Origin: Candidatus Woesebacteria bacterium GW2011_GWB1_39_12
GTDB taxonomy: Bacteria > Patescibacteriota > Microgenomatia > UBA8517
Assembly: GCA_000993405.1 (NCBI GenBank)
Contig: LBWB01000009.1
Coordinates: 13,848 to 77,847, forward strand
Reading direction: 5' to 3'
Length of the DNA: 64,000 bases
Shown here piece after piece: positions 23,865 through 54,084 of the stretch (positions within the stretch are counted from its first letter, which is position 1; every line of letters begins with the position of its first letter). Below the pieces are notes generated by a model that saw only the letters and a program-made list of their open reading frames with translations, ran no database searches and was not told the DNA's origin. Both the position numbers and the translations under genes were made by a program.

Positions 23865-23886
23865 AATTTCTTCGCTATCGTAGAAA

Positions 23887-23919: not shown

Positions 23920-23930
23920 AGATCAAGTTC

Positions 23931-23950: not shown

Positions 23951-23971
23951 CGATTCTACACTTAGGCTTGT

Positions 23972-25186: not shown

Positions 25187-25202
25187 ATCAGGAAGAATTA
25201 AT

Positions 25203-25901: not shown

Positions 25902-25904
25902 ATT

Positions 25905-27128
<1,224 letters not shown>

Positions 27129-31171: not shown

Positions 31172-31226
31172 TCTTTTCACCCCCAATCTGAACACTTCTA
31201 GTATAGACATAAATGAGAGCCTTATG

Positions 31227-32306: not shown

Positions 32307-32308
32307 AG

Positions 32309-32680: not shown

Positions 32681-32689
32681 ACAATTATT

Positions 32690-32715
32690 GTCATCCTGAA
32701 TTTATTTCAGGATCT
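32690..32715. repeat. Palindromic element GTCATCCTGAAtttaTTTCAGGATCT immediately upstream of the PilX-like gene start (second copy at 62732)
   Basis: 8-bp perfect inverted repeat ATCCTGAA/TTCAGGAT; 24/26 nt identical to 62732-62757. Confidence 0.6.
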
Positions 32716-32768
32716 AAGATTTCGAAACTAGTTCGGAATGACTATTCCATAGTCCATTGTCCACTTTT

Positions 32769-35125: not shown

Positions 35126-35134
35126 AGTCCACGA

Positions 35135-37242: not shown

Positions 37243-38919
37243 TTATTCTTTCGTCACCCTAATTATCTCATCAATGGTTGTTATGCCTTGTTTTACCTTT
37301 CCGATGCCATCCTCCAACATGGTTGTCATTCCATTTTTAACTGCAATTTTTTTAATTTCAGATGACTCTTTTTTGGCAACAATTGCAGTCTTCATTTCGT
37401 CGTCGACTAAAAGTACCTCAAAAATTCCCACGCGACCAACGTAGCCTGTCCCGTGGCACAAATCACAACCCTTACCCTTATATACTCTCAGATTTTTTTC
37501 ATTTGGAAAATACTTTTGCATAATACTTTCCGAAATTTCGTTAATTAAAATGCCGCTAACTTCTTCTGAAACGCGACACTTAAGGCAAATTTTTCTTACC
37601 AAACGCTGGGCAATTACCACATTAACGGTCGTTGCAATAAGAAAAGGTTCAACCCCAAAATCAAGAAGTCTCGGGAAGGCTGTTGCAGCGTCGTTCGTGT
37701 GCAGGGTCGATAAAACCAAGTGTCCTGTCATAGCGGCGTTTATAGAAATGTCTGCGGTTTCTTCGTCACGAATCTCCCCGACCAGAATTATATCGGGGTC
37801 TTGCCTAACTATGGACTTCAAGCCTGCCGCAAAAGTTAAGTTCGTATTCGGATTTACCTGAATTTGATTAACCCCTTCCATGTCGTATTCAACAGGATCT
37901 TCTATTGTCATTATATTCACATTCCTTTTGTTCAAGAGTTTCAAAACCGCATAAAGGGTCGTGGTTTTACCGCTTCCGGTGGGCCCTGTTGACAAAATCA
38001 TCCCGTGAGGCTTGTTGTAAGCGCTTACGACCTTTTTCAGATCGCTTTCGGAAAAACCAAGATCCTGAAGTGAAAATTGGCGACTTCTCTCGGATAAAAG
38101 CCGCATGACAACTTTTTCACCGTTAGTCACTGGAACAATGGAGATCCTGATATCCAAGTTTTCCTCGGCGAGCTCGACACTTATCTTCCCGTCCTGGGCT
38201 GATTGATGTTCGTCTGTTCTTAAGCGGGCCATAACTTTTACCCTGGTCACTATCTGCGGATGTATCACGGAAGGCAAATTTATAATGTCGTGAAGCATTC
38301 CGTCTATTCTGAAACGTACGGTCGAACCGTCATCCGTTGGCTCAATATGAATATCAGATGAGCGGTTTTGGTAAGCATAGGTGATAATTGTATCTACGAT
38401 TTTAATAATTGAAGGTTCGGCAACCTTGGTACCCTTAGCCTCTTTGACACTTTCCGCAATAATTTCATCAAAGACTTTTGCAATATCTTTTGCATAAAGA
38501 TTGAGGGCATCCTTTATACTTCTTTTGGATGCATAATAGGTTTTTACCGGAATCCCGATCTTCTTGCCTATAAAATCCGGCACTTGTTTGTCAGATGGGT
38601 CATTTAAAACAATGTGCAGTCCTTCCTTATCTCTCTTAAATGCAACGACCATCTGCTTTTTTGCATAAACCTCCGGAATTGTATTTAATACACCCTCATC
38701 TATTGCCGTTTCGGAAAGATTAACAAAAGGATAATTAATAAGATCCGCAATAATCTTGCCGATATTAGTGTCTGAAATTAAATCCTTTTGGACAAGTAAT
38801 TCTTCTAAAGAGATTTTTTTAAGACTCGCTTCCTCAAAGGATTCCTTTAATTTGTCCAAGGGAATGACGTCCAATTCTTTTAAAGTATCAAAAAGTTCCT
38901 GCTCGCTAAAAAGCCTCAT
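37243..38919 (-). CDS. pilB: Type IV pilus assembly ATPase PilB (GspE family)
   Basis: Walker A GPTGSGKTTT, Asp/His boxes, C-terminal CxxC...CxxC zinc site. Confidence 0.9.
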   Translation of the reverse strand: MRLFSEQELFDTLKELDVIPLDKLKESFEEASLKKISLEELLVQKDLISDTNIGKIIADLINYPFVNLSETAIDEGVLNTIPEVYAKKQMVVAFKRDKEGLHIVLNDPSDKQVPDFIGKKIGIPVKTYYASKRSIKDALNLYAKDIAKVFDEIIAESVKEAKGTKVAEPSIIKIVDTIITYAYQNRSSDIHIEPTDDGSTVRFRIDGMLHDIINLPSVIHPQIVTRVKVMARLRTDEHQSAQDGKISVELAEENLDIRISIVPVTNGEKVVMRLLSERSRQFSLQDLGFSESDLKKVVSAYNKPHGMILSTGPTGSGKTTTLYAVLKLLNKRNVNIMTIEDPVEYDMEGVNQIQVNPNTNLTFAAGLKSIVRQDPDIILVGEIRDEETADISINAAMTGHLVLSTLHTNDAATAFPRLLDFGVEPFLIATTVNVVIAQRLVRKICLKCRVSEEVSGILINEISESIMQKYFPNEKNLRVYKGKGCDLCHGTGYVGRVGIFEVLLVDDEMKTAIVAKKESSEIKKIAVKNGMTTMLEDGIGKVKQGITTIDEIIRVTKE

Positions 38920-38978
38920 ACTTCCATATTACCAAGCCCGAAGAGGTTTGACTAGAGACCCGAAGGAGGAAGTGGGTT

Positions 38979-39851
38979 GTGATGGAATTGTGGGTCATAG
39001 AAAATGGACATATAAAGTGTTATATTTCGGTTGTGCCAAAAGAATATCCAATACTTGACTACATCGACGACCCAAACATTTGGAAATACTGGTTAATGGA
39101 AGGAATTCCCAAACCTCACGTTGCAGCAGCCCTTTTAACTAATTGGCTCTCGCAATTTGAAACCGGCACACCTGAACATAACACAGGCTTTTGGACCCAA
39201 AGAGCTGCGATGTTTTATACTTCTGTTAGATGGATTAACTACAATATACGAGGAGAATGGGGTGAGAGAGCGGAAATTGTTAACTGGAATGATTTTCTCT
39301 CAAAGATTTCAGCAATTCCAAAAGATACTGGATTCATATTTTTTCCCGGAAAATTTAGAACACTTCCGACACTCAACCAAGTAGAAACCGTCTATTTTGG
39401 TCTGGAAAACTTAAAAACTAAGAAAATTGTTAGTGCTTTAATTTATGAACCTCGTGAGAACGTATCAACAATTGAAGGTGAGAAAATTGTACTTGATGAC
39501 CAAATAAGGAAATGGGCTTATTCACAATTACCCGTTAACGCAGTTACCAGTTTTCCCATTATTAAAGAAGGAGAAAACGTTACTCAGTTTTACACCGATA
39601 GATACAAAGAAATACGAAATGCTAAAAGAGGTTATGTTGGGGTTGCGGTGGGAGCTAGCATTCACAGAAATGAGATAATTAGACTAAGTCAACAATACGA
39701 CATAGAGGTTGTGGATACATCAATAGGAGTAGACGATAGTTTTAAACCTATCTCTTCACTTGATACAACCGACTTCGACAATCTTTCATCTAAATCAGAC
39801 TTAGCCAATGAGCTAATACTCAAATATCTGCAACATATGGGACAGATTTAG
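38979..39851 (+). CDS. Hypothetical protein
   Basis: 290 aa ORF, no recognisable domain. Confidence 0.45.
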   Translation: MMELWVIENGHIKCYISVVPKEYPILDYIDDPNIWKYWLMEGIPKPHVAAALLTNWLSQFETGTPEHNTGFWTQRAAMFYTSVRWINYNIRGEWGERAEIVNWNDFLSKISAIPKDTGFIFFPGKFRTLPTLNQVETVYFGLENLKTKKIVSALIYEPRENVSTIEGEKIVLDDQIRKWAYSQLPVNAVTSFPIIKEGENVTQFYTDRYKEIRNAKRGYVGVAVGASIHRNEIIRLSQQYDIEVVDTSIGVDDSFKPISSLDTTDFDNLSSKSDLANELILKYLQHMGQI

Positions 39852-39875
39852 CTCATCTATAAGTAGATTGGCCAC

Positions 39876-39891
39876 GAAGGAAATGGGTTCT
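39876..39891. repeat. Family-Y element GAAGGAAATGGGTTCT at the 3' end of the methyltransferase gene
   Basis: One of five copies of GGAGGAAATGGGTTC (39876, 40657, 42404, 42736, 43325; loose copy 20502). Confidence 0.6.
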
Positions 39892-40614
39892 CTATTGTTT
39901 AACTCCAATTAATAATCCTCTTTCCTTCATAAGTCCATTTTTAAAATATTTTGAATCTAATCCCTCTTGCTTCATCAACTCTAAAGTTCTATCTATTTCA
40001 AACATCCCAAGTTCGTGTCTGTCAGAAAAATGGATAACACCTTTACCTTTCTCTGCAACCAAATAATGCATATCCATCACTGATAAGTTTCCATCAGCAG
40101 AAGACACATTTAATCTTGCTATTTTGATATCGGGAGCGTCATAAGTTGTCATATGAGGTGCACCAACTTTATAGGTCTTTTTTGTAAACCAGGGTTCAAT
40201 TATAACTACACCGCCCCTTCTTAAATGCCTAGCAAAGTTTTTTAACGTCCTTTGTAAATTTTCATAAGTTTTAACATATCCTATTGAACTAAATAAACAA
40301 GTAATTATGTCAAACTGTTTACCTAATTCCATATTAATCATGTCTGCTTGCCTAAAATCGATATTTTTTAGCCGCTGTCTTGCCATTTTTAACATACCGT
40401 CATTTATATCTACTCCTACACATTTAAATTCTTTCTTTAAATGTTCTAGATGTTTACCAGTTCCACAAGCAACTTCTAATAGCTCGTTTCTACTGGATTT
40501 CTTAAACCGTCCGATTAGCTTTTTAACTTTTAAAGCCTCTTCCCGATAATCTTTAAAAGAATATATAAGGTCGTAGTATTTGGCTGAATTTTTATATAAG
40601 AGTTGTTTTTTCAT
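39892..40614 (-). CDS. Class I SAM-dependent methyltransferase
   Basis: Motif I LEVACGTGKH; 240 aa. Confidence 0.8.
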   Translation of the reverse strand: MKKQLLYKNSAKYYDLIYSFKDYREEALKVKKLIGRFKKSSRNELLEVACGTGKHLEHLKKEFKCVGVDINDGMLKMARQRLKNIDFRQADMINMELGKQFDIITCLFSSIGYVKTYENLQRTLKNFARHLRRGGVVIIEPWFTKKTYKVGAPHMTTYDAPDIKIARLNVSSADGNLSVMDMHYLVAEKGKGVIHFSDRHELGMFEIDRTLELMKQEGLDSKYFKNGLMKERGLLIGVKQ

Positions 40615-40656
40615 TAACTGAAGTATATCAAATTTACAGAATTATCAAGAAGCCGT

Positions 40657-40670
40657 GGAGGAAATGGGTT
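40657..40670. repeat. Family-Y element GGAGGAAATGGGTT
   Basis: Downstream of the ZIP gene stop. Confidence 0.6.
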
Positions 40671-40684
40671 ATCAACTTCAATTA

Positions 40685-41506
40685 TTAACCCAGAGCAACG
40701 TCTAAAATCATCATTATTGTAAAACCCAGCATTGCGCCGATTGTGGCAACGTCGGTTGAATTTTTCTGTGATTCGGGAATGATTTCTTCAACCGATACAT
40801 AAATCATTGCTCCTGCTGCAAATGCAAGCGCATAAGGCAAAAGCGGGCGCATAGCCAAAATACCGACTACTCCGATAACCGCAGCAATAGGCTCAACAAT
40901 CGCCGATCCCTGACCAAAGAGAAAACTCTTTAATTTCCCTACACCCACACGCCTGAAGGGCATTGAAACCGCAAAGCCTTCTGGAAAATTCTGGATTCCG
41001 ATGCCTATGGCCAGAGCAATTGCACTAGCAATAGTTGCTCCGGGAATACCGGCCGCCGCTGCGCCAAATGCAACCCCCACCGCTAGCCCTTCGGGAAAAT
41101 TATGAAATGTTATTGCCAGAAACAGAAGAACGGTAGTATGCCAGCCTGTGGGTAAACCCTCAGGACGCGATCGCGATTTAACAATATTCAGGTGCGGCAG
41201 AATTTTATCCACAATCCATAAAAAAGCCCCTCCTGTTAGAAAACCTATTGCAGGAGGCACCCATTTTATTACACCCAATTGCCCACTGAGAACTATGGAC
41301 GGAGCCAGGAGAGACCAAAAACTGGCAGCGATCATAACGCCGGCCGCAAACCCAAGCATCGCGTCAAGCAACTTTTGTGTAACAGTGCGAAAGACAAATA
41401 CCCCTCCCGCACCGAGTGCCGTCATTCCCCAAGCAAAGAGACCTGCAATAAGTGCAGCAAATATTGGATGGTTGACTAGTACTGTTTGATCCATTAAATT
41501 GAACAT
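40685..41506 (-). CDS. ZIP family metal transporter (ZupT-like)
   Basis: HNFPEGLAVGVAF signature, 8 TM helices. Confidence 0.85.
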   Translation of the reverse strand: MFNLMDQTVLVNHPIFAALIAGLFAWGMTALGAGGVFVFRTVTQKLLDAMLGFAAGVMIAASFWSLLAPSIVLSGQLGVIKWVPPAIGFLTGGAFLWIVDKILPHLNIVKSRSRPEGLPTGWHTTVLLFLAITFHNFPEGLAVGVAFGAAAAGIPGATIASAIALAIGIGIQNFPEGFAVSMPFRRVGVGKLKSFLFGQGSAIVEPIAAVIGVVGILAMRPLLPYALAFAAGAMIYVSVEEIIPESQKNSTDVATIGAMLGFTIMMILDVALG

Positions 41507-41624
41507 ATTTTACTCTAAGAACTTATATTTACTATACTAGTTCCAAATGAAGATATCACAGGTTAAAACCCATGATATCTTCTCGCTAAATATTGATTTT
41601 TGCTTCATCCCCTAGTTGTGGTAT

Positions 41625-42317
41625 TTAATATTCTTCTACTACTCTGGGTCTATCTATATACAGGAGGGTTTTACTATTTACGATTTCAATAACCTCGTCC
41701 ACTGTTGCAAAAACATTTTTTAATTTTCTATATTCTTTCTCACTCATCCAAATGTTTCTACCTTCAGGAACAAGCTTCTTTAATTTTCCTTTAACATTAT
41801 CCACCCTATAAACCCAGAAGTATTTATCCTCCAAAAGTCTACCGTCTTTATGGAAATGGTGGTAATGGATAATTCCTTTCAATTCGAATTTTCCTGTCAA
41901 ACCGGTTTCTTCAAGAAACTCTCTCTTGGCACAATCTTGTGGATTTTCTCCCCATCTTATTTTTCCGCTATGGCTGCCGTACCAGCCGTAAAAAGGTTCT
42001 TTCAATCTTTGGTGCACAAGATACTCTGTAATTCCTTTATGTTCTCTTACTGCATGAAGAGCAACGGCCAGTTTTGCTTGCCTTTCGAGTTTCAAAGCAT
42101 CGGTGTCCATTCTATTAGCAAACTCCTTGCCGTCATCCGTAAGAGAATACCTTCCGTTTGTTTTTACCACTAAACCTTCTTTTAATAAGTGTTTAAGGTG
42201 GAAAGTAAAATGGTCGTTTGTTATGTCAACCTTTTTGAGGTCTCTAAATCTTGCGTTGGGTTTAAAAAGAAGTTCCCGTAAAATTGAAATTTGAAATTCG
42301 TGAATTTTGATTTCCAT
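41625..42317 (-). CDS. NUDIX hydrolase with N-terminal winged-helix DNA-binding domain
   Basis: HTH-like N-terminus; Nudix box GKIRWGENPQDCAKREFLEETGL. Confidence 0.65.
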   Translation of the reverse strand: MEIKIHEFQISILRELLFKPNARFRDLKKVDITNDHFTFHLKHLLKEGLVVKTNGRYSLTDDGKEFANRMDTDALKLERQAKLAVALHAVREHKGITEYLVHQRLKEPFYGWYGSHSGKIRWGENPQDCAKREFLEETGLTGKFELKGIIHYHHFHKDGRLLEDKYFWVYRVDNVKGKLKKLVPEGRNIWMSEKEYRKLKNVFATVDEVIEIVNSKTLLYIDRPRVVEEY

Positions 42318-42403
42318 GTTTACCGCTATTATTTACCACAAAATTCCAGAAGTCTAGTATAGTCAACTTAACCAAATGGATATTATCTAGTTTTCTAAGG
42401 CTG

Positions 42404-42418
42404 GAGGGGAAATGAAGT
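42404..42418. repeat. Family-Y element variant GGAGGGGAAATGAAG
   Basis: Immediately 3' of the 42420 gene stop. Confidence 0.45.
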
Positions 42419-42419
42419 A

Positions 42420-42719
42420 TTATGCAGTAGGGTGAATTTGAACTTTCTTCTCAACCTTTTCCATTCTTGGTTCAAGGTCATCATAAACCTTACTCGTCAA
42501 TACAATCTGTTCTTCTCTCATCGTTTTCAGCTCGGTCATTATCTCATCCATTTTGCTAAAGAAGTCTTCCTTAGACGGAAAATGCTTTAGTTTTTCATTA
42601 AGTTTCTCTTCCAATTCTTCATCAATAGTAATTTTCATCAAATCTTTAATTGCGTTTAAATCCTTATCTGTAAGTGCCATATTGCTATTTAAGTATATAA
42701 AAGAAAATCTGTCAATCAT
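42420..42719 (-). CDS. Hypothetical coiled-coil protein
   Basis: 99 aa charged/helical ORF. Confidence 0.45.
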   Translation of the reverse strand: MIDRFSFIYLNSNMALTDKDLNAIKDLMKITIDEELEEKLNEKLKHFPSKEDFFSKMDEIMTELKTMREEQIVLTSKVYDDLEPRMEKVEKKVQIHPTA

Positions 42720-42735
42720 TTAAAATCACATCTCT

Positions 42736-42750
42736 GGAGGAAATGGGTTC
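42736..42750. repeat. Family-Y element GGAGGAAATGGGTTC overlapping the stop of the NUDIX gene
   Basis: Seen in sequence. Confidence 0.6.
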
Positions 42751-43275
42751 TTATCCATTCTTGTCTACTCTCTGATTGAGAGATTTTACCAGTTGTGAGT
42801 TTTTCCATTGGATGTTTGTGTACAAAATACCTGGTTTGTCGTTAAGTACGTGGTCAAAATAATATTTCGCTGGCGGAAAAACGTTATCCATAACAAGTAG
42901 TTCTTCAAGTGGTATCCATTTGGCATTTCCTTCCAGATCTTCTTTTTTTTCCTTTTGGTTTTTCTTGATGGTTGCCAGAAAGACAAAAGATACCCAGACT
43001 TCTTTCCTATCCATGTGGTGATGAAGAGCTATACCCTTCAATTTTATGTCGTCTAAATCAACTTTAACTCCAGCCTCTTCGTCTATTTCTCTTACAGCTG
43101 CCAAAAGAGCATCTTCATCATGATCGATATGGCCACCCGGTCCAATCCAAAAACCCGGAAATTTACTGGCAGTGTCGCTTCTTTTGAACATCAATACTTT
43201 GCCATCTTTGATTACATAGCACTCCGACGCAAGCATTATCTGGCCTAGCTCGTCTAAATGCTTTGATTCATTCAT
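42751..43275 (-). CDS. NUDIX hydrolase
   Basis: Nudix box GPGGHIDHDEDALLAAVREIDEEAGV. Confidence 0.8.
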   Translation of the reverse strand: MNESKHLDELGQIMLASECYVIKDGKVLMFKRSDTASKFPGFWIGPGGHIDHDEDALLAAVREIDEEAGVKVDLDDIKLKGIALHHHMDRKEVWVSFVFLATIKKNQKEKKEDLEGNAKWIPLEELLVMDNVFPPAKYYFDHVLNDKPGILYTNIQWKNSQLVKSLNQRVDKNG

Positions 43276-43324
43276 ACAGAATTAATTATATAATACTTTA
43301 GGCAATATAATGCGAAAATGCTGC

Positions 43325-43339
43325 GGGGGAAATGGGTTC
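43325..43339. repeat. Family-Y element GGGGGAAATGGGTTC overlapping the EamA gene stop
   Basis: Seen in sequence. Confidence 0.6.
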
Positions 43340-44221
43340 TTAAGTTCTTCTATATAAAACAGCATTTATATTTGGAAGTATTGCGGCTGAAATTATTAAT
43401 AAACCACCAAGATATGTCGCAGGTTGAGGATACTCCTTGAAAACAAAATAGGAAAATAGTGTTGCGAATATAATCTCGACCGGTAGAATAATGCTTCCTA
43501 CCTGGGCTTCGATATTTTTAAACCCGTAAACTATCAGGCCGACATTTACTGTTTGGACAAGTGCATAGACAAATATCCAAAACCATTTAACTGAAGAGGA
43601 TTCCATTGGCAGTTTTTCTTTAAAAAGCATGGATCCAATAAGTGCAGCAATTACCCCCCCCGCCGCATCCATCATAACTATTTGGTTATTAGAATAATGA
43701 TCAGAGAACTTCTTCGAAATCGTATTCCAAACACCTGTCATAAATCCGGATGTAAAAGCCAGAATAACATAAATGACTTCGTTTGAGCTAATACTAAATC
43801 TGTAAATTATTACAAGTCCCAGAAAGCAAAGCACCAAAGACGCAGTTTTTGAAATATTTAACTTCTCTTTAAAAAATATCTTCCCGGAAATGAATCCTGC
43901 AGCAATCATCGACGAATAAATTATCAAATATGTCGTTCCGATTTGGAGATTGTTAAATGCAATAAATGTTAAAACCGTCACCCAAGATCCGGATAAAAGC
44001 CATAAAATAATCCATTTCAGATCTTCCTTTCGAATTGCCAGAAGCTTGGTCTTTCTTATGACTATCACGCCAGCAATTAATGCGAGAACAATCAGGTTTC
44101 TTACCCAGTTTTGACTAAAACTTCCAAAAGAAGTTCCAATTAATCTTGAAAATATCCCATAAAGTCCATAAAATCCCGCAGCAGTAAAAAGTGAAATTGC
44201 ACCAAACTTCTGATTCTTCAT
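43340..44221 (-). CDS. EamA/DMT family transporter
   Basis: 293 aa, ~10 TM helices. Confidence 0.7.
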   Translation of the reverse strand: MKNQKFGAISLFTAAGFYGLYGIFSRLIGTSFGSFSQNWVRNLIVLALIAGVIVIRKTKLLAIRKEDLKWIILWLLSGSWVTVLTFIAFNNLQIGTTYLIIYSSMIAAGFISGKIFFKEKLNISKTASLVLCFLGLVIIYRFSISSNEVIYVILAFTSGFMTGVWNTISKKFSDHYSNNQIVMMDAAGGVIAALIGSMLFKEKLPMESSSVKWFWIFVYALVQTVNVGLIVYGFKNIEAQVGSIILPVEIIFATLFSYFVFKEYPQPATYLGGLLIISAAILPNINAVLYRRT

Positions 44222-44241
44222 TACAAATTAAATTTTATCAC

Positions 44242-44313
44242 GATCCTGAGTGAAATCGAAGGATTATAATCCTGAGTTCATCGAAGGACTCCGGAGTTAA
44301 TTTGAAGACAAAT
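44242..44313. repeat. Extended family-X element (72 nt): direct repeats ATCCTGAGT..TCGAAGGA x2, palindrome AGGATTATAATCCT, CTCCGGAG, AATTTGAAGACAAAT
   Basis: ~95% identical to 46013-46083; contains a TATAAT hexamer inside the palindrome. Confidence 0.7.
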
Positions 44314-44819
44314 TATTTATTGATTTTATACCTGTTAAATGCCTCCACAAATCCCGGTGGAAAATCTTTTGGGTTATCTTCCATCATTTTTTCCACAGTA
44401 GCCAAACTAAACCATCGCCCGCCACTCAGCTCATTCTGGTCCAACATTATCGCTCCGTCAAAAATAGTTGTGTAAAGAGTACTAAATTCTTTTAGTAACT
44501 GTCCCTTAAAATCTTGCTCTTTGTAAAATTTTGTAATCCTATCCAGTGTCGAGGTGCTAATCCCCAATTCTTCTCTCAACTCACGCATTGCAGCTTCATC
44601 GTAAGTTTCACCCTCATCAACATGTCCGCCCGCTGATTGATCCCATGTGTCAGGGTAAGTTGTCATACTAGCACTCCTCCTTTGAAGGTACATCTCACCC
44701 TTACTGTTAAATACAAATATTCTAACAATTCTTCTTATTAAACCATTTTTAAATGCAGTCTCTTTATCCTCCGAGCCAACGACATTATCATTCTTATCAA
44801 CAATTACCACTTTCGACAT
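44313..44819 (-). CDS. NUDIX hydrolase (IPP-isomerase-like fold)
   Basis: Nudix box SAGGHVDEGETYDEAAMRELREELGI. Confidence 0.75.
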   Translation of the reverse strand: MSKVVIVDKNDNVVGSEDKETAFKNGLIRRIVRIFVFNSKGEMYLQRRSASMTTYPDTWDQSAGGHVDEGETYDEAAMRELREELGISTSTLDRITKFYKEQDFKGQLLKEFSTLYTTIFDGAIMLDQNELSGGRWFSLATVEKMMEDNPKDFPPGFVEAFNRYKINK

Positions 44820-44841
44820 AATGAAATTATATCATTTTCTT

Positions 44842-44864
44842 CTGGAGTCAATTTGAAGACAAAT
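44842..44864. repeat. Family-X core CTGGAGTCAATTTGAAGACAAAT
   Basis: Between the DUF5615 stop and the NUDIX start. Confidence 0.6.
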
Positions 44865-44880
44865 ATTCTTTCCTGAAATT

Positions 44881-45258
44881 TTAACTAACTATCCTAAAAC
44901 CTGTTTCCTTGACTACAGTTAGTTTATTGTTTAAGTTTATTGAGGGTTTTGGATTCTCAATAAACCTTCTGAGAATTTCATTGACGTTCTCGGGTGTTTG
45001 ATTTTTTGTTCGTACATGTATTATTCCAATCTTGCCCTTCTCACGGAAATACCATAGATCCGCAAAATCACGGTCAAAGGTAATAATAATTCTTGCTTCC
45101 CTTTTAGCTTTCTTCACTACCTCTTCATCAGACAAATAATGAAGCTTTTGCTCAAGAATTGAGGTAGCATCAAAATTAAGATTTCTCAAAAATTCTGCAG
45201 TAAGTGGAGAAAGATTTGCATCCAAAAGAAATTTAGGCAAAGTTGTAGTTTTCCTCAC
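44881..45258 (-). CDS. DUF5615 (PIN-like) protein, second copy
   Basis: KFLLDANLSP...ARIIITFDRDF. Confidence 0.65.
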   Translation of the reverse strand: MRKTTTLPKFLLDANLSPLTAEFLRNLNFDATSILEQKLHYLSDEEVVKKAKREARIIITFDRDFADLWYFREKGKIGIIHVRTKNQTPENVNEILRRFIENPKPSINLNNKLTVVKETGFRIVS

Positions 45259-45460
45259 GATTTAACTTCTCTGCTGCAAATGCGAGCGCTGCCTCAATTT
45301 GCTTTCTGGTAATAGGTGGGTAAGCTTTCGCTATTTTTTCAAAAGTGTATCCATTTGCAAGAAGGTTAAGGATAGTTCCCACAGGAATCCTAGTGCCTTT
45401 TATGACGGGCTTACCAACCATCACCTTCGGATTGATTTCAATATACTTATCGTATTTCAT
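45233..45460 (-). CDS. DUF433 protein, second copy (overlaps DUF5615 gene by 26 nt)
   Basis: VMVGKPVIKGTRIPVGTILNLLANGYT. Confidence 0.7.
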   Translation of the reverse strand: MKYDKYIEINPKVMVGKPVIKGTRIPVGTILNLLANGYTFEKIAKAYPPITRKQIEAALAFAAEKLNREENYNFA

Positions 45461-45516
45461 ACCCGTTATTGTAGCACTTCAATCAAGACGTAGTAAGTGC
45501 AGAACTTCCACAAAAC

Positions 45517-45541
45517 CTCCGGAGCTAATTTGAAGACAAAT
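45517..45541. repeat. Family-X core CTCCGGAGCTAATTTGAAGACAAAT abutting the HIT gene stop
   Basis: Seen in sequence. Confidence 0.6.
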
Positions 45542-45996
45542 TATAAATTTTCCTTTAATTCTTTAATGATCTTTATTAGAACGTCTTCGGGTTGTAAAAA
45601 GATTCTATCTTGCCCTCGAGCATAATGTGAGCCAAATTCAGGATCTTTAAAGGTAAGTCCTGCAAACTTCACGTCTCTTTCATATCTTGGCCTTACATGC
45701 CAATGAATATGCGGATTAGCCGTTTTTTCTTTAAAAGCATTATTCATTAAACAGGACCAATTGATGAGTTTCGCATCAAAAGTTCTTTTAAAACAACTTT
45801 CAAGTTTTCTTACTAATTCAGAAAAATCTAACCATTCGTCTTTTGTTAATTCAGAAAGACTTCCGCAATGCCTTTTTAAAGAAACAAAAGAACGTCCTAA
45901 ATATTCCTGATTTTCATTGATATCAACTTTCCAAAATTTAGTTTGAGTAATCGTTCTACCGAAATTATTCAGAAAAGGGCAAACATCGCAGTTCAT
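45541..45996 (-). CDS. HIT family hydrolase
   Basis: HIHWHVRP histidine triad; N-terminal CxxC. Confidence 0.7.
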   Translation of the reverse strand: MNCDVCPFLNNFGRTITQTKFWKVDINENQEYLGRSFVSLKRHCGSLSELTKDEWLDFSELVRKLESCFKRTFDAKLINWSCLMNNAFKEKTANPHIHWHVRPRYERDVKFAGLTFKDPEFGSHYARGQDRIFLQPEDVLIKIIKELKENL

Positions 45997-46012
45997 GAGC
46001 CAATTTTACCAT

Positions 46013-46083
46013 GATCCTGAGTCAAATCGAAGGATTATAATCCTGAGTTTACCGAAGGACTCCGGAGCTAATTTGAAGACAAA
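46013..46083. repeat. Extended family-X element, second copy, in the divergent region between the HIT and SGNH genes
   Basis: ~95% identity to 44242-44313. Confidence 0.7.
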
Positions 46084-46113
46084 TGATTATTTCAGATACG
46101 ATACAATGGTTGG

Positions 46114-46971
46114 ATGGATATTCAAAAAAAGGATGTTTTCATACGATTGTTATCTCTTTCTGTTCTTTTTCTTATTTTCGTCGCCTCCTTATCAAATGTT
46201 CAAAGACCTCAGAAAGTTAATCCTGCGCGGGGATTCAACCCGACATACACGCCCACTCCTATCCCTTTTAATCCTTTTCCTTACAAAATTCCAACCATTC
46301 CTTATTCCCGTGCGTATCGAACGATGCTCGTCGGAGATTCAATAGTCGGCTCTCTCGGGCCAAACGCAGACCGCCTGCGCCAACACCTGATAGTTTTTTA
46401 CCCGAGTCATGAATTTGTTAACTATAATTACGGTTTCGGCGCAACCAGTATAGAAACGTTACCAGAGAGACTCGCTGAAAATACTGTTTATAGAGGTCAA
46501 AGTTATCAGCCGATTTTATCCCAGGGCTTTGATCTTATCATTGTAGAATCATTTGGCTACAATCCCCTCTCGCAGTTAAATGAAGGGGAAGGCCTTGCAA
46601 AACACATGCAAATTTTGGACGAAAACATAAAGAAAATTATCATAGAAAAACCCCACTCAGTAGTTGCAATAATGACCCCAATTGCTCCGAATAAAAGTTA
46701 TTTTGCGAAGGGCGTCTATGACCTTTCCTCAGAGGAAAGAATTAAGTGGGCAAATGAGCGGATTTCATATATCGAAGCCGTAATTGTCTATGCGAAGGAT
46801 AACGAAATTCCTCTCATTAATGTTTATGAGAAATCTTTGACCGCCCAAGACGACGGCAATCTAGCCTACATCAATCCGGATGATTATGTTCACCCCTCAG
46901 CCGAGGGTATTGAACTTATTAGTAGAACTATTGCGGAATTCATCTTTAGCGCTAAAATCTTCCCGGAGTAG
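46114..46971 (+). CDS. SGNH/GDSL-type hydrolase, secreted
   Basis: Block I LVGDSIVGS; block V DDYVHPS; N-terminal signal anchor. Confidence 0.65.
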   Translation: MDIQKKDVFIRLLSLSVLFLIFVASLSNVQRPQKVNPARGFNPTYTPTPIPFNPFPYKIPTIPYSRAYRTMLVGDSIVGSLGPNADRLRQHLIVFYPSHEFVNYNYGFGATSIETLPERLAENTVYRGQSYQPILSQGFDLIIVESFGYNPLSQLNEGEGLAKHMQILDENIKKIIIEKPHSVVAIMTPIAPNKSYFAKGVYDLSSEERIKWANERISYIEAVIVYAKDNEIPLINVYEKSLTAQDDGNLAYINPDDYVHPSAEGIELISRTIAEFIFSAKIFPE

Positions 46972-46975
46972 ACAA

Positions 46976-47539
46976 TTACTTAAACATAACCACCCATTTA
47001 TAATCTGGAAGAATCAGAAGCGGAAGTTTTTCCTTGTAAGAAGCTAGTTTTTTGATTATCTTTATATCCCCTTGCTTATAATGACAATACGACTTTATAT
47101 CTAGAATTCCCAAACCTCTCTCAATTTTCTGAACTTCGTTTCCGTAATAATACTTAGCCAGACAATTTACTCCAGCAGACGAACCTCCAACAACCTTACC
47201 CTCAAGTAACTTACCAAGATTTTTTGTTACCGCAAGTTTCTTGATCAACTTATCTGTTGCAAAACCACCCGCAAGATAGATAAGATCAGCCCATTTCACC
47301 TGCTCAGGGAAGTTATTAACTTCTGCTAATTTAAACTCGACATTTTTACCCTTAGCAAAATACCTGAATGTCTCGCTGTGCCGTTTAAATTTATCTTCAA
47401 CTTTATTCTCGTCGCTTGCAAAATAAGTCATAAGAAGATTGAGGTTTTCTTTATTTCCGATAGTCATTTCTTTAAAGAAACCGTAGTTGTCTTGATTTTT
47501 GTCGCCAAGATTCCCGCCGTGCAAAACAAATTTAATCAT
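46976..47539 (-). CDS. Peptidase S51 (dipeptidase E/cyanophycinase-like) family protein
   Basis: GGSSAG nucleophile motif. Confidence 0.6.
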   Translation of the reverse strand: MIKFVLHGGNLGDKNQDNYGFFKEMTIGNKENLNLLMTYFASDENKVEDKFKRHSETFRYFAKGKNVEFKLAEVNNFPEQVKWADLIYLAGGFATDKLIKKLAVTKNLGKLLEGKVVGGSSAGVNCLAKYYYGNEVQKIERGLGILDIKSYCHYKQGDIKIIKKLASYKEKLPLLILPDYKWVVMFK

Positions 47540-47561
47540 TAGCGAATTATATCAAATTTCT

Positions 47562-47583
47562 CGAAGCTAATTTGAAGACAAAT
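47562..47583. repeat. Family-X core CGAAGCTAATTTGAAGACAAAT
   Basis: Between the receiver gene stop and the S51 gene start. Confidence 0.6.
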
Positions 47584-47602
47584 CTTAATATGGAGATTGC
47601 AT

Positions 47603-47977
47603 TCATTGGGCTGGGCCGATGAGGGATTGGAGCTTGGCGACCAAACCCGTTATTGCAAAATCAGTTTTGACAATGTAGTCTTTAGCTCCCAAGCCCATTG
47701 CTTTCTCTATATCTTCTTTTTGACCTAAGTTAGAGGCAACAATAACAGGAATATTTTTCCACTCGTCATTTTTCTTCATCTCGGAAAGAACCGAGAAACC
47801 GTCCTTTTTTGGCATTACCAAGTCCAATATAATAAGATCGAATTTGCCCTTTTGAAGCGCCGCAAGTGTTTCCTCACCGTCTGCAACCAAAGTTACGTCG
47901 TATGAAGCTTTAGTAAGTTTTACTCTATAGGCATTTGCTAAAAATTTATCATCTTCGGCAACAAGTATTTTCTTCAT
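47603..47977 (-). CDS. Single-domain response regulator (CheY-like receiver) 3
   Basis: ILVAEDD...DLIILDLVMPKKDG...K; 124 aa. Confidence 0.85.
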   Translation of the reverse strand: MKKILVAEDDKFLANAYRVKLTKASYDVTLVADGEETLAALQKGKFDLIILDLVMPKKDGFSVLSEMKKNDEWKNIPVIVASNLGQKEDIEKAMGLGAKDYIVKTDFAITGLVAKLQSLIGPAQ

Positions 47978-48357
47978 GAATTCTTAAGTGTCTCGCGAAC
48001 CTTGGCAACAACTTCATCTAACTTCCAATCAGTCTTTACTAGATAGGAGTTGACTCCTTTATCTTTGCTTTCTTCAATGGTTGATGCATCGCTTAAGTTT
48101 GAAAGAATTATTACGGGAACATTTTTCCCCCACTCATCTTCCCGAAGTCTATCAAGAAGCGTAACCCCGTCCATAACCGGAAGAACGATGTCTAAAAGTA
48201 CCAGATTGGGATGTTTCTCTAAAGCTGCCGCCAAACCTTCTCCACCATCAAAAGCCTCCAAAACTTCAAACCCTCCTTTTTCCAGCTTTCTTTTTATCGC
48301 CTTAGAAAGAAGCCTCTCATCTTCTACTAATAATACGATTGTCTTTTTATCACTCAT
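47974..48357 (-). CDS. Single-domain response regulator (CheY-like receiver) 2
   Basis: 127 aa receiver domain; ATGA overlap with the next gene. Confidence 0.85.
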   Translation of the reverse strand: MSDKKTIVLLVEDERLLSKAIKRKLEKGGFEVLEAFDGGEGLAAALEKHPNLVLLDIVLPVMDGVTLLDRLREDEWGKNVPVIILSNLSDASTIEESKDKGVNSYLVKTDWKLDEVVAKVRETLKNS

Positions 48358-48389
48358 ACTACTTGCTCTTAGCCATTATAGTTTTACAC

Positions 48390-48776
48390 TCAGTTCTTTT
48401 CAACGGTTTCCCGAAGTATTTCTATAATGTCCTCAAGTCTATATTGCGCTTTTAATAAATACTGTTTTACTCCAAGTTCGAGCATCGAATTTTTCTTTTC
48501 GTCGCTGGCTGAATTACTGACTACAACAACAGGTATTTTTGCCCAGGCTTCTTTTTTCTTCAATTCCCGCATAAACTCCAATCCGTTCATGTCCTCAAGA
48601 TAGTAATCGAGCCAAATAACGTCCGGAAATTCTGTTATATTAGTTAAATAATCTATCGCTTGCTTGGCCGAAGTACACGTAATAGGTTCAAAACCCTTGC
48701 TTGTTAATTTTTTGGAAATAGCCTGAAGAAGCAGCTCTTCATCTTCAATTACCATCACTTTTATCGTTTTTTCCAT
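48390..48776 (-). CDS. Single-domain response regulator (CheY-like receiver) 1
   Basis: 128 aa receiver domain. Confidence 0.85.
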   Translation of the reverse strand: MEKTIKVMVIEDEELLLQAISKKLTSKGFEPITCTSAKQAIDYLTNITEFPDVIWLDYYLEDMNGLEFMRELKKKEAWAKIPVVVVSNSASDEKKNSMLELGVKQYLLKAQYRLEDIIEILRETVEKN

Positions 48777-48796
48777 TTCTTTTATTATATATTATC

Positions 48797-50452
48797 CTAT
48801 ATATCTATTGTAACCTCTCCTTCTTTTTGAACACTACCCGAAAGCGGTACGGCAAACCAAAACGTAGTACCCTTACCCTCATCGCTTTCAAACCAGATTC
48901 TCCCTCCTGATGATTCGACAATGGCTTTAGTCAAATATAGACCCAAGCCGGTTCCTTCGGTTTCGATCTTGATCACGTTTTCTGCTCTGAAGAATTTTTT
49001 GAAAACCTGCTCGTGCTGGCGCCTCGGAATACCGTATCCACTGTCTGAAACTTGAGAGACAACCTCGCCATTCTTTACAGATATAATAATAACGATTTCA
49101 CCCCCATCCGGCGTATATTTTATCGCATTTGTCAGAAGATTCATGTAGACGTGCCTAATGAGTCTGGGATCGATATTCACCAAAGGAAGATTCTTATGGA
49201 TGGAAATTGCTAAATGCTGTTTCTTTTTATCAAATCTTGGTCTAACTTCAAGAATCACTTCGTCAAGAAGTTTTCTTAAATCAGTCGGCTTGGGATCAAT
49301 TATAATCCTCCCTGATTCAATTCGTGAAATATTCAAAAGTGTATTCACCAGTTGAATCATGCGCTCATTAGATTGATATATATTTGTAAGAAGTTCTTCT
49401 TGCTCCTTATTCAGGTCTCCCGCGTCGCGATCTAAAAGAATTTCACAAAACCACTTCATTGCAGAAAGAGGAGTTCTGAGTTGGTGTGAAGCAAGCGAAA
49501 TAAACTCAGTCTTCATTCTATCTATTTCCTTTTCTTTGGTGATGTCTCGAAATACATCGACTCCTCCGATAACTCTGTCAAAGACTATTACGGGTGTTGC
49601 AGTTATAGAAACCGGAAATTTACTGCCGTCGCGTCTAACAAAAAAATAGTTGGTGCTCTCGATTTTTTTCTTTAGAAAAAGGGCATTTCTGATGGGACGT
49701 TCATTTACGCTTACCTCTTTATCGTCTTTGTCAAACATTTTTATCGAATACCAAATTGGTTTTCCGATGAGTTCATCTTGCTTTAGACCAGTCATGTATT
49801 CAACTTGTTGATTTGTAAAGATTATTTCCCCTCTATCGTTTATTCCAACCACGCCGTCTCCAATATTCGCAAGCATTGCGTCATCCATCGCTTTTTCCTC
49901 GGCAAGTTCTCTATTCTTACTAACAAGCTCTTCCTGAATTTTTTTCTGTTCAAGGGAAATCTGATAGGTTAACGAACTCCTCAAAAATTCCACATCTACC
50001 CAGGTAGATAAGTCTTTTAAGGTTGAGACTTCTAAGTCAGAAAATTTCCTAGGCAAGCGGTCTGCCAAAAAAAGACTCCCGACGACCGAGAGGTCCGAAG
50101 CTCTTATGGGTACGCCCGCAAAAAATCGTATTTTAGGTCCATCGGTAACATAAGGATTACTCTTAAATTCCTCATTTTGAAGAGTATCCTCAATAATAAC
50201 CATCTCTTCTTTTAAAACGACGGCGTTAGAAAAAGAAGTGCTTCGATCTTCCGTCAAGTGGTCAAGTCCCTGTATAGACTTAAACCATACCTTTTGAGCG
50301 TCAACCAAAGAAATTCCGGCGACGGGAACGGCAAAAATTTTTGAAGCAAGACGCGTAATTATTTCAAATCTCTCTTCTTTCGGAGTATTAAGAAGGTTCA
50401 AACTCGTTAGGGCTATTAATCTTTTCCTTTCTTTTTCTTTCTCAGGATCCAT
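48797..50452 (-). CDS. Cytoplasmic sensor histidine kinase (GAF-PAS-HisKA-HATPase_c)
   Basis: No TM helix; GAF N-terminus, PAS, H-box SLASHQLRTPLSAM, ATP-binding N/G boxes. Confidence 0.9.
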   Translation of the reverse strand: MDPEKEKERKRLIALTSLNLLNTPKEERFEIITRLASKIFAVPVAGISLVDAQKVWFKSIQGLDHLTEDRSTSFSNAVVLKEEMVIIEDTLQNEEFKSNPYVTDGPKIRFFAGVPIRASDLSVVGSLFLADRLPRKFSDLEVSTLKDLSTWVDVEFLRSSLTYQISLEQKKIQEELVSKNRELAEEKAMDDAMLANIGDGVVGINDRGEIIFTNQQVEYMTGLKQDELIGKPIWYSIKMFDKDDKEVSVNERPIRNALFLKKKIESTNYFFVRRDGSKFPVSITATPVIVFDRVIGGVDVFRDITKEKEIDRMKTEFISLASHQLRTPLSAMKWFCEILLDRDAGDLNKEQEELLTNIYQSNERMIQLVNTLLNISRIESGRIIIDPKPTDLRKLLDEVILEVRPRFDKKKQHLAISIHKNLPLVNIDPRLIRHVYMNLLTNAIKYTPDGGEIVIIISVKNGEVVSQVSDSGYGIPRRQHEQVFKKFFRAENVIKIETEGTGLGLYLTKAIVESSGGRIWFESDEGKGTTFWFAVPLSGSVQKEGEVTIDI

Positions 50453-51890: not shown

Positions 51891-52535
51891 CTACTCTTCA
51901 GTTATTATTTTCAGTTTTCCAGATTCGTAAACTGCCGTGTCGGCGGTTAGGGTCTTTGCCTGAACAATATAGTGATTATACCCTTCCCACAAAGATACTT
52001 TTCCGGATGAAACAAAAACTGAAGTCTGACTTGTGGTTTCAATTTGACTACCCCCAACTCCGATAAAATGGGTCGTATCGTATATTCTAAAAAAGGCTTT
52101 ACCATTAGCGTTCAACAATTTTATATTCGCCTCAAAATAGACTTCCAGAAGGCCTGGGAAATCGTTTTTGCTTAAATAAAAATCGGTACCGGAAAGATTA
52201 GTCCAATCTGTCGCCAACGTGCTTCCCGATCCCGGAATCGGAACGTAGTATGTACGGCGAGATTTCTTCGTTGGAACTAATCTTGGAGTCGGAGTTGACG
52301 AGATGACTTCTTTCGTATCCAAGGTTAACTCAGAAACTTTAAGCTCTATGTAGCGCTTACATTCCTCCCCACATTCATCTTTTGACTCTTCATTTTGGGA
52401 AGAAATCTCCTGAAGTCGTTCTATATTAGAATCTTCATCTGTCAACTTAAACTCATTCTTGTATATCAAAAAACCAAGAAGTGCATTTATAAGAATTAAG
52501 TCGATCGCCACAAAAACTTTGAGTAGATTTTTCAT
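51891..52535 (-). CDS. Hypothetical membrane-anchored protein
   Basis: N-terminal TM. Confidence 0.45.
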   Translation of the reverse strand: MKNLLKVFVAIDLILINALLGFLIYKNEFKLTDEDSNIERLQEISSQNEESKDECGEECKRYIELKVSELTLDTKEVISSTPTPRLVPTKKSRRTYYVPIPGSGSTLATDWTNLSGTDFYLSKNDFPGLLEVYFEANIKLLNANGKAFFRIYDTTHFIGVGGSQIETTSQTSVFVSSGKVSLWEGYNHYIVQAKTLTADTAVYESGKLKIITEE

Positions 52536-53146
52536 TTAAAACTCACGTTGTAATCTAGGTTTGGGGGTATAAGCTTATCTTCGCGAAGGTTGCTTCCCGA
52601 GATTTCTCTCTCAAGGACATTTATGTCTTCTTCGAGTTGCAAGATTTCGGGATCATTCGCATAGACTGATGGTTTATAGGGTTGATACAATGCCGGGGTT
52701 GGACTTACTTCATTTCTGGGTACCTTCACCTCACCATCCTCCTGTAAAAGTCTGAAAAGTCTTATGCCTATAAAGACCAAGATCATCAAAAAAACCAAAA
52801 TGAGAAAGGTCCTTACGAGTCTTTTAATGAATTTATTTTCAAATGCTCCTTTTACAGAAGAGGTTAATACAGAACCGGTCGCCAAACCCTTGGAAGTGAG
52901 AGGCTTAGATGAAGTAGAAACTTTAGTGATACTTTTTCTAACAAAAGTTTTAAATTTTTGGACGTCTTGCTTAACGCTGTCTTCTTCGGGTGGAACCTGT
53001 TGCGAAGAAGTGTTTGGTTGTGAAGTCTCTTTTGAAACCGGAGATTTACCCGTAAGCGAACGAATCCAACCAGTAAGTCCACCCATGCCGCTAAAAATAC
53101 CCTTTACTCCTTCTTTATTTTCTGTTTGATTTTGTATCGTTCCCAT
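52532..53146 (-). CDS. Hypothetical single-pass membrane protein
   Basis: Central TM (LVRTFLILVFLMILVFIGI). Confidence 0.45.
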   Translation of the reverse strand: MGTIQNQTENKEGVKGIFSGMGGLTGWIRSLTGKSPVSKETSQPNTSSQQVPPEEDSVKQDVQKFKTFVRKSITKVSTSSKPLTSKGLATGSVLTSSVKGAFENKFIKRLVRTFLILVFLMILVFIGIRLFRLLQEDGEVKVPRNEVSPTPALYQPYKPSVYANDPEILQLEEDINVLEREISGSNLREDKLIPPNLDYNVSFK

Positions 53147-53148
53147 TT

Positions 53149-54024
53149 TTAATCCTCTGCCGTTTTGACTTCCCGTATTACCTCTTTCAAAAAGGTGTTT
53201 GCTTCTTTCAAGAAAAGCTGAGATTCGCCCAAAACGCCAATCATATTGTTAAAGTATTTGAGAACATCTTTTCTCTGTTTGACAATAAGAACGAGCATAT
53301 TATCAACCTCGACCTGTTTTTCTTTGCTTCTTACAATCTTCTCTTCCGTCTCAAAAATCCAGCGGTCCAAAACTTCAAACTTTTCATTGCTAAATTTATA
53401 CTCGTCTCTATCTTCCTTGCTAATAATTTCAAGTTTATTTTTAACGGCAGTTAGTGCTCCTTCAGATCTCACGGTAAAATCGGATATCTTCCCGTAAGCG
53501 GTTGTGCCTAAAATTTCGTAAACAAGGGGCTCTACTCCCTCCCACCGTTTCTTTGCAAGATCTGAATCTTTTACAAGATCTTCCAGTGTTCCTGCAGAGG
53601 GAACGGTATCTTTGTGATCGGTAAACCAACCTACTTCTTCATTTACTCTCAAGGTAAGAGCTTCTTTTCTGACTTCATGAACTCCAATTCCTTCAGAGAG
53701 TCTCGCTAAAAGAGTGGTTAAGTAGGTAATTACTACTTCATCTCTAGCCTGAAGCATTTTTACCGTGGCTTCTTGGGCATCTTGCCTACTTTTCAGGGAC
53801 TGGAAACGAAGATATTGAGACCTTCTTAAAATATATTCTTCATGAACCTTTTGATAATCTTGAAGTTTTAAAATGTATTCTTGATATGCCTGATCAAAAC
53901 CTTTTTCTTCTTCTTTAATCTCGGATGATTGTGTTGCCTCGGGAGATTGCGAAAAAACTTGTTGAACTGAAATTAAACTCAAGGCGACAAAAAAAATAGT
54001 GGGCAGAATCAAAACTTTCCTCAT
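53149..54024 (-). CDS. Hypothetical secreted coiled-coil protein
   Basis: Signal peptide from MRKVLILPTIFFVALSLISV. Confidence 0.45.
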   Translation of the reverse strand: MRKVLILPTIFFVALSLISVQQVFSQSPEATQSSEIKEEEKGFDQAYQEYILKLQDYQKVHEEYILRRSQYLRFQSLKSRQDAQEATVKMLQARDEVVITYLTTLLARLSEGIGVHEVRKEALTLRVNEEVGWFTDHKDTVPSAGTLEDLVKDSDLAKKRWEGVEPLVYEILGTTAYGKISDFTVRSEGALTAVKNKLEIISKEDRDEYKFSNEKFEVLDRWIFETEEKIVRSKEKQVEVDNMLVLIVKQRKDVLKYFNNMIGVLGESQLFLKEANTFLKEVIREVKTAED

Positions 54025-54084
54025 GTATTTTAAATTTACACTTTTACCTTCAGGACTACAACTTTTTTTGTGTATCAAGTAAAA

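Follow-up and report, generated by a model that had tools for sequence, protein, structure and literature searches.

In the CheY1/CheY2 sink systems of Sinorhizobium and in DivJ/PleC-DivK, several single-domain receivers share a kinase and compete for phosphoryl groups, which shapes the output. Receivers linked to type IV pili are known as well. In the Pil-Chp system of Pseudomonas aeruginosa, the kinase ChpA phosphorylates both PilG and PilH; PilG promotes the polar recruitment of PilB, and PilH counteracts it, possibly as a phosphate sink (PMC11656802). In Xanthomonas, the classical kinase ColS acts upstream of EmvR, a single-domain regulator that both binds PilB and represses the PilB ATPase (PMC11973254); DrdR, a protein with tandem receivers and no output domain, binds PilB as well as PilT (PMC13507683). 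Here, we analyzed a locus of four genes, encoding a sensor histidine kinase (HK) and three stand-alone receivers (REC1, REC2 and REC3), on a 64,000-nucleotide stretch of DNA from Candidatus Woesebacteria bacterium GW2011_GWB1_39_12 (contig LBWB01000009.1, positions 13,848 to 77,847; G+C about 38 to 39%). This whole stretch is called the window below, and its positions are counted from its first letter. Woesebacteria are members of the Microgenomates group of the Patescibacteria (candidate phyla radiation, CPR).

From conserved gene order and the precedents above, we reasoned that there is about an even chance that the four genes are the local three-receiver copy of a Patescibacterial module that ancestrally headed the type IV pilus operon, and that they would control the pilus motor post-translationally, in the manner of PilG/PilH or EmvR, through a kinase that is not of the CheA type. 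Type IV pili are the main known means by which Patescibacteria move and bind hosts, and the pilus genes of locus one are essential in cultured Saccharibacteria (PMC12206443). The papers on CPR and Saccharibacteria pili (PMC12206443; 10.1101/2022.03.25.485537) do not mention a kinase, regulator or receiver beside pilB, and the literature searched on CPR pili and signaling yielded no description of a module linking such genes to pilB, although papers beyond that set may hold one. The nearest reports are a single line according to which "chemotaxis response regulators" guide the twitching of a Saccharibacterium and, separately, the enrichment of CheY-like genes in sediment-attached ultra-small genomes (PMC9938205).

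The kinase and its three receivers

The four genes are arranged as follows, the kinase gene being transcribed first:

48797-50452, minus strand: HK, sensor histidine kinase with GAF, PAS, HisKA and HATPase_c domains, 551 aa (open reading frame [ORF] and Pfam)
48390-48776, minus strand: REC1, stand-alone receiver of class A, 128 aa, acceptor Asp57 (Pfam Response_reg, 8e-19)
47974-48357, minus strand: REC2, stand-alone receiver of class C, 127 aa, acceptor Asp56 (Pfam Response_reg, 6e-22)
47603-47977, minus strand: REC3, stand-alone receiver of class B, 124 aa, acceptor Asp52 (Pfam Response_reg, 6e-24)

A preliminary description, made from the sequence without database searches, had proposed a soluble 551-aa kinase and three mutually divergent receiver-only proteins of 124 to 128 aa on the minus strand, joined by short or 4-nt junctions. 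ORF, Pfam and hydropathy analyses confirmed the coordinates and domains. In the sequence, HK and REC1 are 20 nt apart, REC1 and REC2 are 32 nt apart, and the REC2 stop and the REC3 start share a 4-nt ATGA overlap; the pairwise identity among the receivers is 22 to 28%, as the description had led us to expect. A GH39-like gene ends 60 nt upstream of HK, and an S51-like gene starts 63 nt downstream of REC3.

In HK, Pfam placed a GAF domain at residues 26-152 (1.3e-10), PAS_9/PAS at 190-306 (7e-15), HisKA at 313-381 (2e-18; 66.5 bits against a gathering cut-off of 26.9) and HATPase_c at 428-538 (2e-29; 102.7 bits against 26.4); the protein is not a hybrid kinase. No membrane helix was seen, since the 19-residue Kyte-Doolittle mean stayed at or below 1.55 with its peak within the GAF domain, compared with a peak of 2.26 for the classical kinase of the window. 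The H-box (49474-49497, minus strand) reads SHQLRTPL, with His323, Gln324 and Thr327, and is followed by the N box NLLTNAIKYT at residue 438, the G1 box DSGYGIP at 470, the F box FKKFFRA at 484 and the G2 box GTGLGL at 500. These three residues and the N, G1, F and G2 boxes are invariant across 21 orthologues. The best solved match to the kinase core is Thermotoga maritima HK853 (3dge_A, 7e-43) and that to the GAF domain is 4zmu, a GAF-GGDEF protein (1e-20). HK with an identical sequence is also present on Rifle aquifer metagenome contigs.

Response_reg is the sole domain of each receiver and spans nearly the entire protein (68.3 bits for REC1, 78.4 for REC2 and 84.7 for REC3; cut-off, 30.2). 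As judged by alignment to CheY, Spo0F and DivK sequences, all three receivers retain the acidic pair (ED, ED and DD), the acceptor Asp, a Ser at the position of Thr87, the switch Tyr and the equivalent of Lys109; the Ser sits in an SN motif and the Lys in a K(A/T) motif, in which Ala or Thr replaces the usual Pro. The best solved match is RR468 (5.8e-18 for REC3 and 2.7e-13 for REC1). REC3 matches, at 100% identity, UT24_C0009G0077 of Ca. Woesebacteria bacterium GW2011_GWB1_39_12, a protein annotated as hypothetical, and the public names of class A and class B homologues are equally generic (CheY-like, OmpR family, PhoP, response regulator or hypothetical).

Comparison with a sister species gave dN/dS values of 0.057 for HK, 0.022 for REC1, 0.048 for REC2 and 0.072 for REC3, next to 0.057 for PilB; dS is near saturation in this comparison, and pN is far below pS all the same. 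All four genes are thus under strong purifying selection. A pseudogene among the receivers, which the preliminary description had named as a finding that would count against it, was not encountered: the residues are intact, and with dN/dS of 0.02 to 0.07 none of the four genes is a pseudogene.

The strongest sigma-70-like match in the 11 kb scanned lies at 48403-48375 on the minus strand (TTGAAA, 17 nt, TATAAT; 11/12), in the 3' end of REC1 and 18 nt before the REC2 start, and it could be an internal promoter for REC2-REC3. The REC1-REC2 spacer of the sister species L089 is just 10 nt, so the match may not be conserved. Overall, the promoter and terminator scans returned hits at chance level (27 versus 26.3 expected and 9 versus 8.5, respectively) and are uninformative on the operon limits. 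Rfam and tRNA scans found no RNA genes in the window.

Gene order and receiver classes across Patescibacteria

The distribution of the kinase-receiver arrangement, a check that the preliminary description had suggested, was examined by scanning one genome per species with two kinase patterns, one of which contained SHQ. This gave 80 related loci, in which ORFs were called and then scored with receiver and kinase profiles built in this analysis; the loci are phylogenetically non-independent, and the counts below overstate their statistical weight. They span Woese-, Levy-, Roizman-, Ames-, Curtiss-, Davies- and Shapirobacteria, WWE3, Saccharibacteria and Nomurabacteria/Paceibacterota. The HK core is 53 to 65% identical to the kinases of these loci, and full-length GAF-PAS orthologues share 45 to 66% identity with HK; many further relatives share the PAS-DHp-CA core alone, placed behind extra PAS domains, HAMP plus membrane segments, or dCache. 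The window itself carries the core type of the module, EFISLASHQLRTPL / LLNISRIESG, followed by class A and class B receivers.

In most of the 80 loci, between one and three stand-alone receivers come directly after the kinase, the first typically about 130 aa long and the next about 121 aa, and the usual order is one to three HK genes, class A, class B, PilB, PilC and pilins. After the receivers, the most frequent neighbors in ORF clustering were homologues of the window PilB, in 37/80 loci, and of the window PilC, likewise in 37/80, and then pilin-like genes; PilC came after PilB in nearly all 37 PilB-carrying loci (exception, L071). Where at least 2.5 kb was available downstream of the last receiver, PilB lay within the next same-strand genes in 28 of 50 loci, and the gaps between the last receiver and PilB were mostly -10 to 135 nt. 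PilB was present in all five three-receiver loci. Phylum-level lineages with otherwise entirely different flanks keep the class B receiver and PilB in this order, and the junctions are often overlapping or very short.

Average-linkage clustering of the 123 downstream receivers resolved two large classes and some small ones. The window receivers were assigned with class HMMs built without window sequences:

Class A: 54 members, mean pairwise identity 56%, always first after the kinase; REC1 scores 197.5 bits, next best class 89
Class B: 48 members, mean pairwise identity 50%, usually the last receiver; REC3 scores 180.5 bits, next best class 110
Class C: 8 members, mean pairwise identity 48%, between A and B where both are present; REC2 scores 177.9 bits, next best class 109.5

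REC1 is 57 to 69% identical to first-position receivers of other CPR lineages. The class B receiver adjoins pilB in relatives, and a same-strand PilB follows in 33/42 loci with class B versus 1/23 without it. The order A-C-B recurs in L007, L008, L010 and L038, each time followed by PilB. From the distribution and order of the classes across loci, the core module is kinase-A-B-pilB and REC2 is a lineage-restricted extra. The arrangement noted in the preliminary description is thus spread across Patescibacteria, normally with two receivers.

The window encodes its own pilus genes on the strand of the receivers:

38920-47602, both strands: variable accessory region between REC3 and pilB, 8.7 kb
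37243-38919, minus strand: PilB-type type IV pilus assembly ATPase with MshEN and T2SSE domains, 558 aa (Pfam T2SSE, 1e-130; MshEN, 4e-12)
36100-37173, minus strand: PilC-type platform protein (Pfam T2SSF, 2e-59)
30680-36028, minus strand: remaining pilus cluster (Pfam N_methyl, PDDEXK_3)

Receivers and pilus genes, adjacent in relatives, are separated here. In L007 and L008, the nearest relatives in the genome collection (HK 65% identical), HK-A-C-B-PilB-PilC are contiguous, so that pilB-pilC directly follow the last receiver, after 135 nt in L007 and 89 nt in L008. In the closer sister species L089-L091 (REC1 91% identical, upstream synteny identical), the third receiver and pilB are about 4.4 kb apart, and the genes between them (EamA, MOSC and unknowns) are unrelated. 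Since the gap is 89 to 135 nt in the first pair, about 4.4 kb in L089-L091 and 8.7 kb in the window, the receiver-pilB junction is a variable spot in this lineage, and the ancestral adjacency is broken in the window. The seemingly output-less operon thereby gains a plausible output 8.7 kb downstream. The preliminary description had advised a search for phosphotransfer (Hpt) proteins or output-domain partners; no Hpt was recorded among the window genes, and the probable output is the type IV pilus genes.

The gene order was also sampled from the pilB side, by a metagenome scan with a PilB profile. The matches listed were mostly distant PilB proteins (37 to 45% identical), many of them on high-GC contigs, and serve as a control rather than a census. 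Among them, a same-strand kinase-receiver pair directly upstream of PilB occurred on low-GC contigs only (L092, L100, L101 and L113), and the low-GC contig L097 had a receiver alone upstream of PilB. None of the approximately 50 listed loci with a G+C of at least 0.5 had a same-strand kinase-receiver pair upstream of PilB; a few of them carried a PilS/PilR-like kinase and an NtrC-type regulator on the opposite strand. The PilB-adjacent receivers of this sample scored as class B/C (119 to 150 bits), not as class A (68 to 89 bits). From this sample, the kinase-receiver arrangement upstream of pilB is neither general to pilB loci nor universal in low-GC ones.

Several other features of the related loci were recorded. 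In Saccharibacteria (L019, 8146-8946 and 8918-9283; also L024, L042, L044, L051 and L054), two conserved genes encoding proteins of about 266 aa and about 121 to 129 aa, without Pfam match, lie between the last kinase and the class A receiver. Some class A receivers of Saccharimonadales carry C-terminal tails of 75 to 125 residues (L028, 8278-9048; L032, 8178-8894; L012, 8284-8901), and no Pfam domain that could be a hidden output domain was found in the tails of L028, L032, L012, L029 and L044. Upstream of HK, three tightly packed genes (51891-54078, minus strand) encode proteins of 309, 204 and 214 aa that contain hydrophobic segments and match nothing in Pfam; the GH39-like gene separates them from HK in the window and in L089-L091, and similar genes lie upstream of the kinase in the Woesebacteria relatives L007, L008 and L089. 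L008, L010, L015-L017 and others have a gene content typical of Patescibacteria and are closely homologous to genes of Woesebacteria or Saccharibacteria, yet their records are titled "uncultured Gammaproteobacteria bacterium", and single related contigs are titled Methylomirabilota or Weeksellaceae; these contigs are probably mislabelled or misbinned.

Proposed control of the pilus motor and competing readings

In the mechanism that we propose, the cytoplasmic GAF and PAS domains would sense an intracellular ligand or state, and the HisKA/HATPase core would set the phosphorylation of REC1 at Asp57, REC2 at Asp56 and REC3 at Asp52. Because they have no output domain, the receivers are expected to work through contacts with other proteins. 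PilB and/or PilC may be the target of the class B receiver, and perhaps of the related class C receiver too, which would tune pilus extension; contact between a receiver and the motor has precedents in EmvR and DrdR and, functionally, in PilG/PilH. The class A receiver always lies beside the kinase and also occurs where no pilB follows; its most probable role is in competing for phosphate flux or shaping it, or in feedback on the kinase. We infer phosphotransfer from HK to each receiver, receiver binding to PilB/PilC and a division of labor among the three. Judging from the genes it travels with, the module probably has pili rather than gene expression as its output.

Several observations weigh against this proposal. 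The pilus link is guilt by association. In the window, the receivers and pilB cannot share one transcript because 8.7 kb with two opposite-strand genes intervenes. Apart from PilB, no T2SSE-family protein was found in the window, neither PilT nor any other paralogue. PilB is missing downstream of the receivers in nine loci that have class A together with class B, four or more of these nine being too short to judge, and many low-GC PilB loci among the matches listed have no kinase-receiver pair upstream. Finally, the Gln at the position after the phospho-His (H+1) leaves the direction of phosphate flow uncertain.

This last point opens a different reading of the kinase. HK has Gln324 where an acidic residue is expected after the phospho-His, and Thr327 at H+4, where Thr or Asn serves as the phosphatase residue; the window's classical kinase has SHELRTPL. 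An acidic H+1 residue is required for autokinase activity in CrdS, HK853 and NtrB and is needed solely for that activity, as CrdS E372Q and NtrB E140Q lose the kinase and keep the phosphatase (Willett and Kirby, PMC3510030). Gln at H+1 is found in all 21 orthologues and in 92/99 kinase H-boxes of the 80 loci, tandem Saccharibacteria paralogues included, a count partly biased by the SHQ in one of the two scan patterns; it also occurs in the independently sampled PilB-adjacent kinases L092, L101 and L113. HK might therefore be mainly a signal-controlled phosphatase or a non-canonical catalyst, with acetyl phosphate or some other donor phosphorylating the receivers and HK setting how fast they are dephosphorylated. 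The strict conservation of the N, G1, F and G2 boxes, however, is hard to explain without ATP use, and active kinases without an acidic H+1 residue exist, such as PhoQ with its Ser. We consider this reading rather unlikely; it bears on which way phosphate flows and would agree with pili as the output. The family, by its sequence, would either autophosphorylate by a modified mechanism or be phosphatase-biased, and its family-wide Gln provides a natural experiment at a position on which HisKA kinase activity is held to depend.

Two further readings leave the pilus aside. The module could be a generic branched or phosphate-sink node with unlinked targets (for example, a protease adaptor, cell division or HK itself), with the adjacency to pilB as inherited order. 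The window operon does stand alone, 8.7 kb from pilB with opposite-strand genes between; class A and the kinase occur in 13 loci without PilB nearby; and single-domain receivers such as DivK, CpdR and Spo0F have many targets. This reading is an unlikely one that still deserves some weight; against it stand the order of class B and PilB, kept with tight junctions across phylum-level lineages with differing flanks, and the fact that class B predicts PilB (33/42 versus 1/23). The preliminary description had suggested a branched phosphorelay or a phosphate-sink arrangement. The part of that suggestion in which one kinase serves several receivers that compete for phosphoryl groups is plausible, and the phosphorelay part found no support. 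Such a relay would run from the kinase through a receiver and an Hpt/Spo0B-like protein to a DNA-binding regulator controlling transcription. Spo0F-type stand-alone receivers do so elsewhere, and several window proteins without Pfam match could hide a divergent four-helix phosphotransferase. Against it, HK is not itself a hybrid, Pfam recorded no Hpt, Spo0B-like or other phosphotransferase family for any gene of the 64-kb window, and ORF clustering of the 80 loci showed no extra conserved small gene accompanying the module. The operon has no output-domain regulator, as had been noted at the outset; the only one in the window, of the OmpR type, lies 25 kb off, where it has a kinase of its own and adjoins an ABC exporter. 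From these 64 kb of the genome, a phosphorelay is thus highly improbable.

Returning to the pilus-control proposal, we advance its broader form more tentatively, as a possibility that falls short of an even chance: that Patescibacteria carry a so far undescribed, phylum-group-wide pilus-control pathway, made of a HisKA family with interchangeable sensors and a natural Gln at H+1 (maybe phosphatase-biased or atypical) and two CheY-like receivers, with class B coupled to PilB and class C added in the Woesebacteria lineage of the window. If true, this pathway would give an ultra-small episymbiont the sensory input for deciding when to extend its pili. If gene order reflects function, the order HK-receiver-receiver-pilB names candidate signaling genes for pilus deployment, and genetic tools for testing the module exist in Saccharibacteria.

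Neighboring genes and comparison with known systems

The output-domain regulator of the window and its kinase are encoded as follows:

21374-22048, plus strand: OmpR-type regulator, 224 aa
22135-23181, plus strand: membrane kinase paired with the OmpR-type regulator, 348 aa, H-box SHELRTPL

They adjoin MacA-like, ABC ATPase and FtsX/MacB-like exporter genes (21374-27128, plus strand), and the whole looks like a self-contained sensing-plus-efflux unit.

Downstream of pilC, the pilus cluster comprises the following genes:

35135-36028, minus strand: pilin-like ORF with an in-frame N-terminal PDDEXK_3 part, 297 aa, directly after pilC
33287-35125, minus strand: conserved unknown protein, 612 aa
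32769-33302, minus strand: pilin-like gene
within 30680-36028, minus strand: 123-aa unknown protein and 359-aa LytR_C protein
30680-31246, minus strand: pilin-like gene

Three of these genes, 33287-35125, 32769-33302 and 30680-31246, have homologues downstream of PilC in related loci. In the ORF at 35135-36028, residues 13-125 match PDDEXK_3 (1e-27) and residues from about 155 to 180 form a type IV pilin signal/N-methylation motif (AAFTLIELL...); relatives carry a plain 151- to 157-aa pilin at this place. The PD-(D/E)XK nuclease-like part lies in frame, with no stop, ahead of the likely major pilin, and the same ORF was called on an independent ENA contig.

The accessory region at 38920-47602 holds an S51-like peptidase, a GDSL-like gene (plus strand), an HIT-like gene, a DUF433/PIN-like pair, three NUDIX genes, EamA, Zip, a methyltransferase and an unknown gene on the plus strand. 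DUF5615/PIN-like genes occur twice in the window (3341-3745, plus strand; 44881-45460, minus strand), and the second copy is paired with a DUF433 gene, which suggests toxin-antitoxin-like modules.

We compared the module with the described systems. Like Pil-Chp of P. aeruginosa, it has at least two output-less CheY-like receivers and one kinase beside type IV pilus genes. The window kinase, however, is a HisKA-type GAF-PAS protein, whereas the Pil-Chp kinase is of the CheA type with Hpt domains, and no ChpA/CheA-type kinase, MCP (PilJ), CheW, CheB or CheR was recorded among the window genes or found conserved in the 80 loci. No PilG/PilH model appeared among the best 25 NCBIfam matches listed per receiver, and the public annotations of receiver homologues never name PilG or PilH. 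The CheY1/CheY2 and DivJ/PleC-DivK systems act on flagellar motors or cell-cycle kinases; nothing in the module points to either, and the window has no flagellar genes.

HK853-RR468 of T. maritima resembles the module in pairing a HisKA kinase with a stand-alone receiver, and it provides the closest solved structures for both, a similarity that is not proof of orthology; HK853 differs from HK in having Glu at H+1, a membrane anchor, one receiver partner and no known pilus link. With Xanthomonas oryzae ColS-EmvR and X. campestris DrdR, the module would share a receiver without output domain that is fed by a classical kinase, binds PilB and alters the PilB ATPase activity, which for the window module is a proposal by analogy. 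EmvR and DrdR, in contrast, are encoded by orphan genes and not at the head of a pilB operon, each is one protein or a tandem-receiver protein rather than three separate receivers, and the lineages are unrelated. Thus, by analogy, the module probably works like PilG/PilH, EmvR and DrdR, yet we do not class it as a member of any of these systems.

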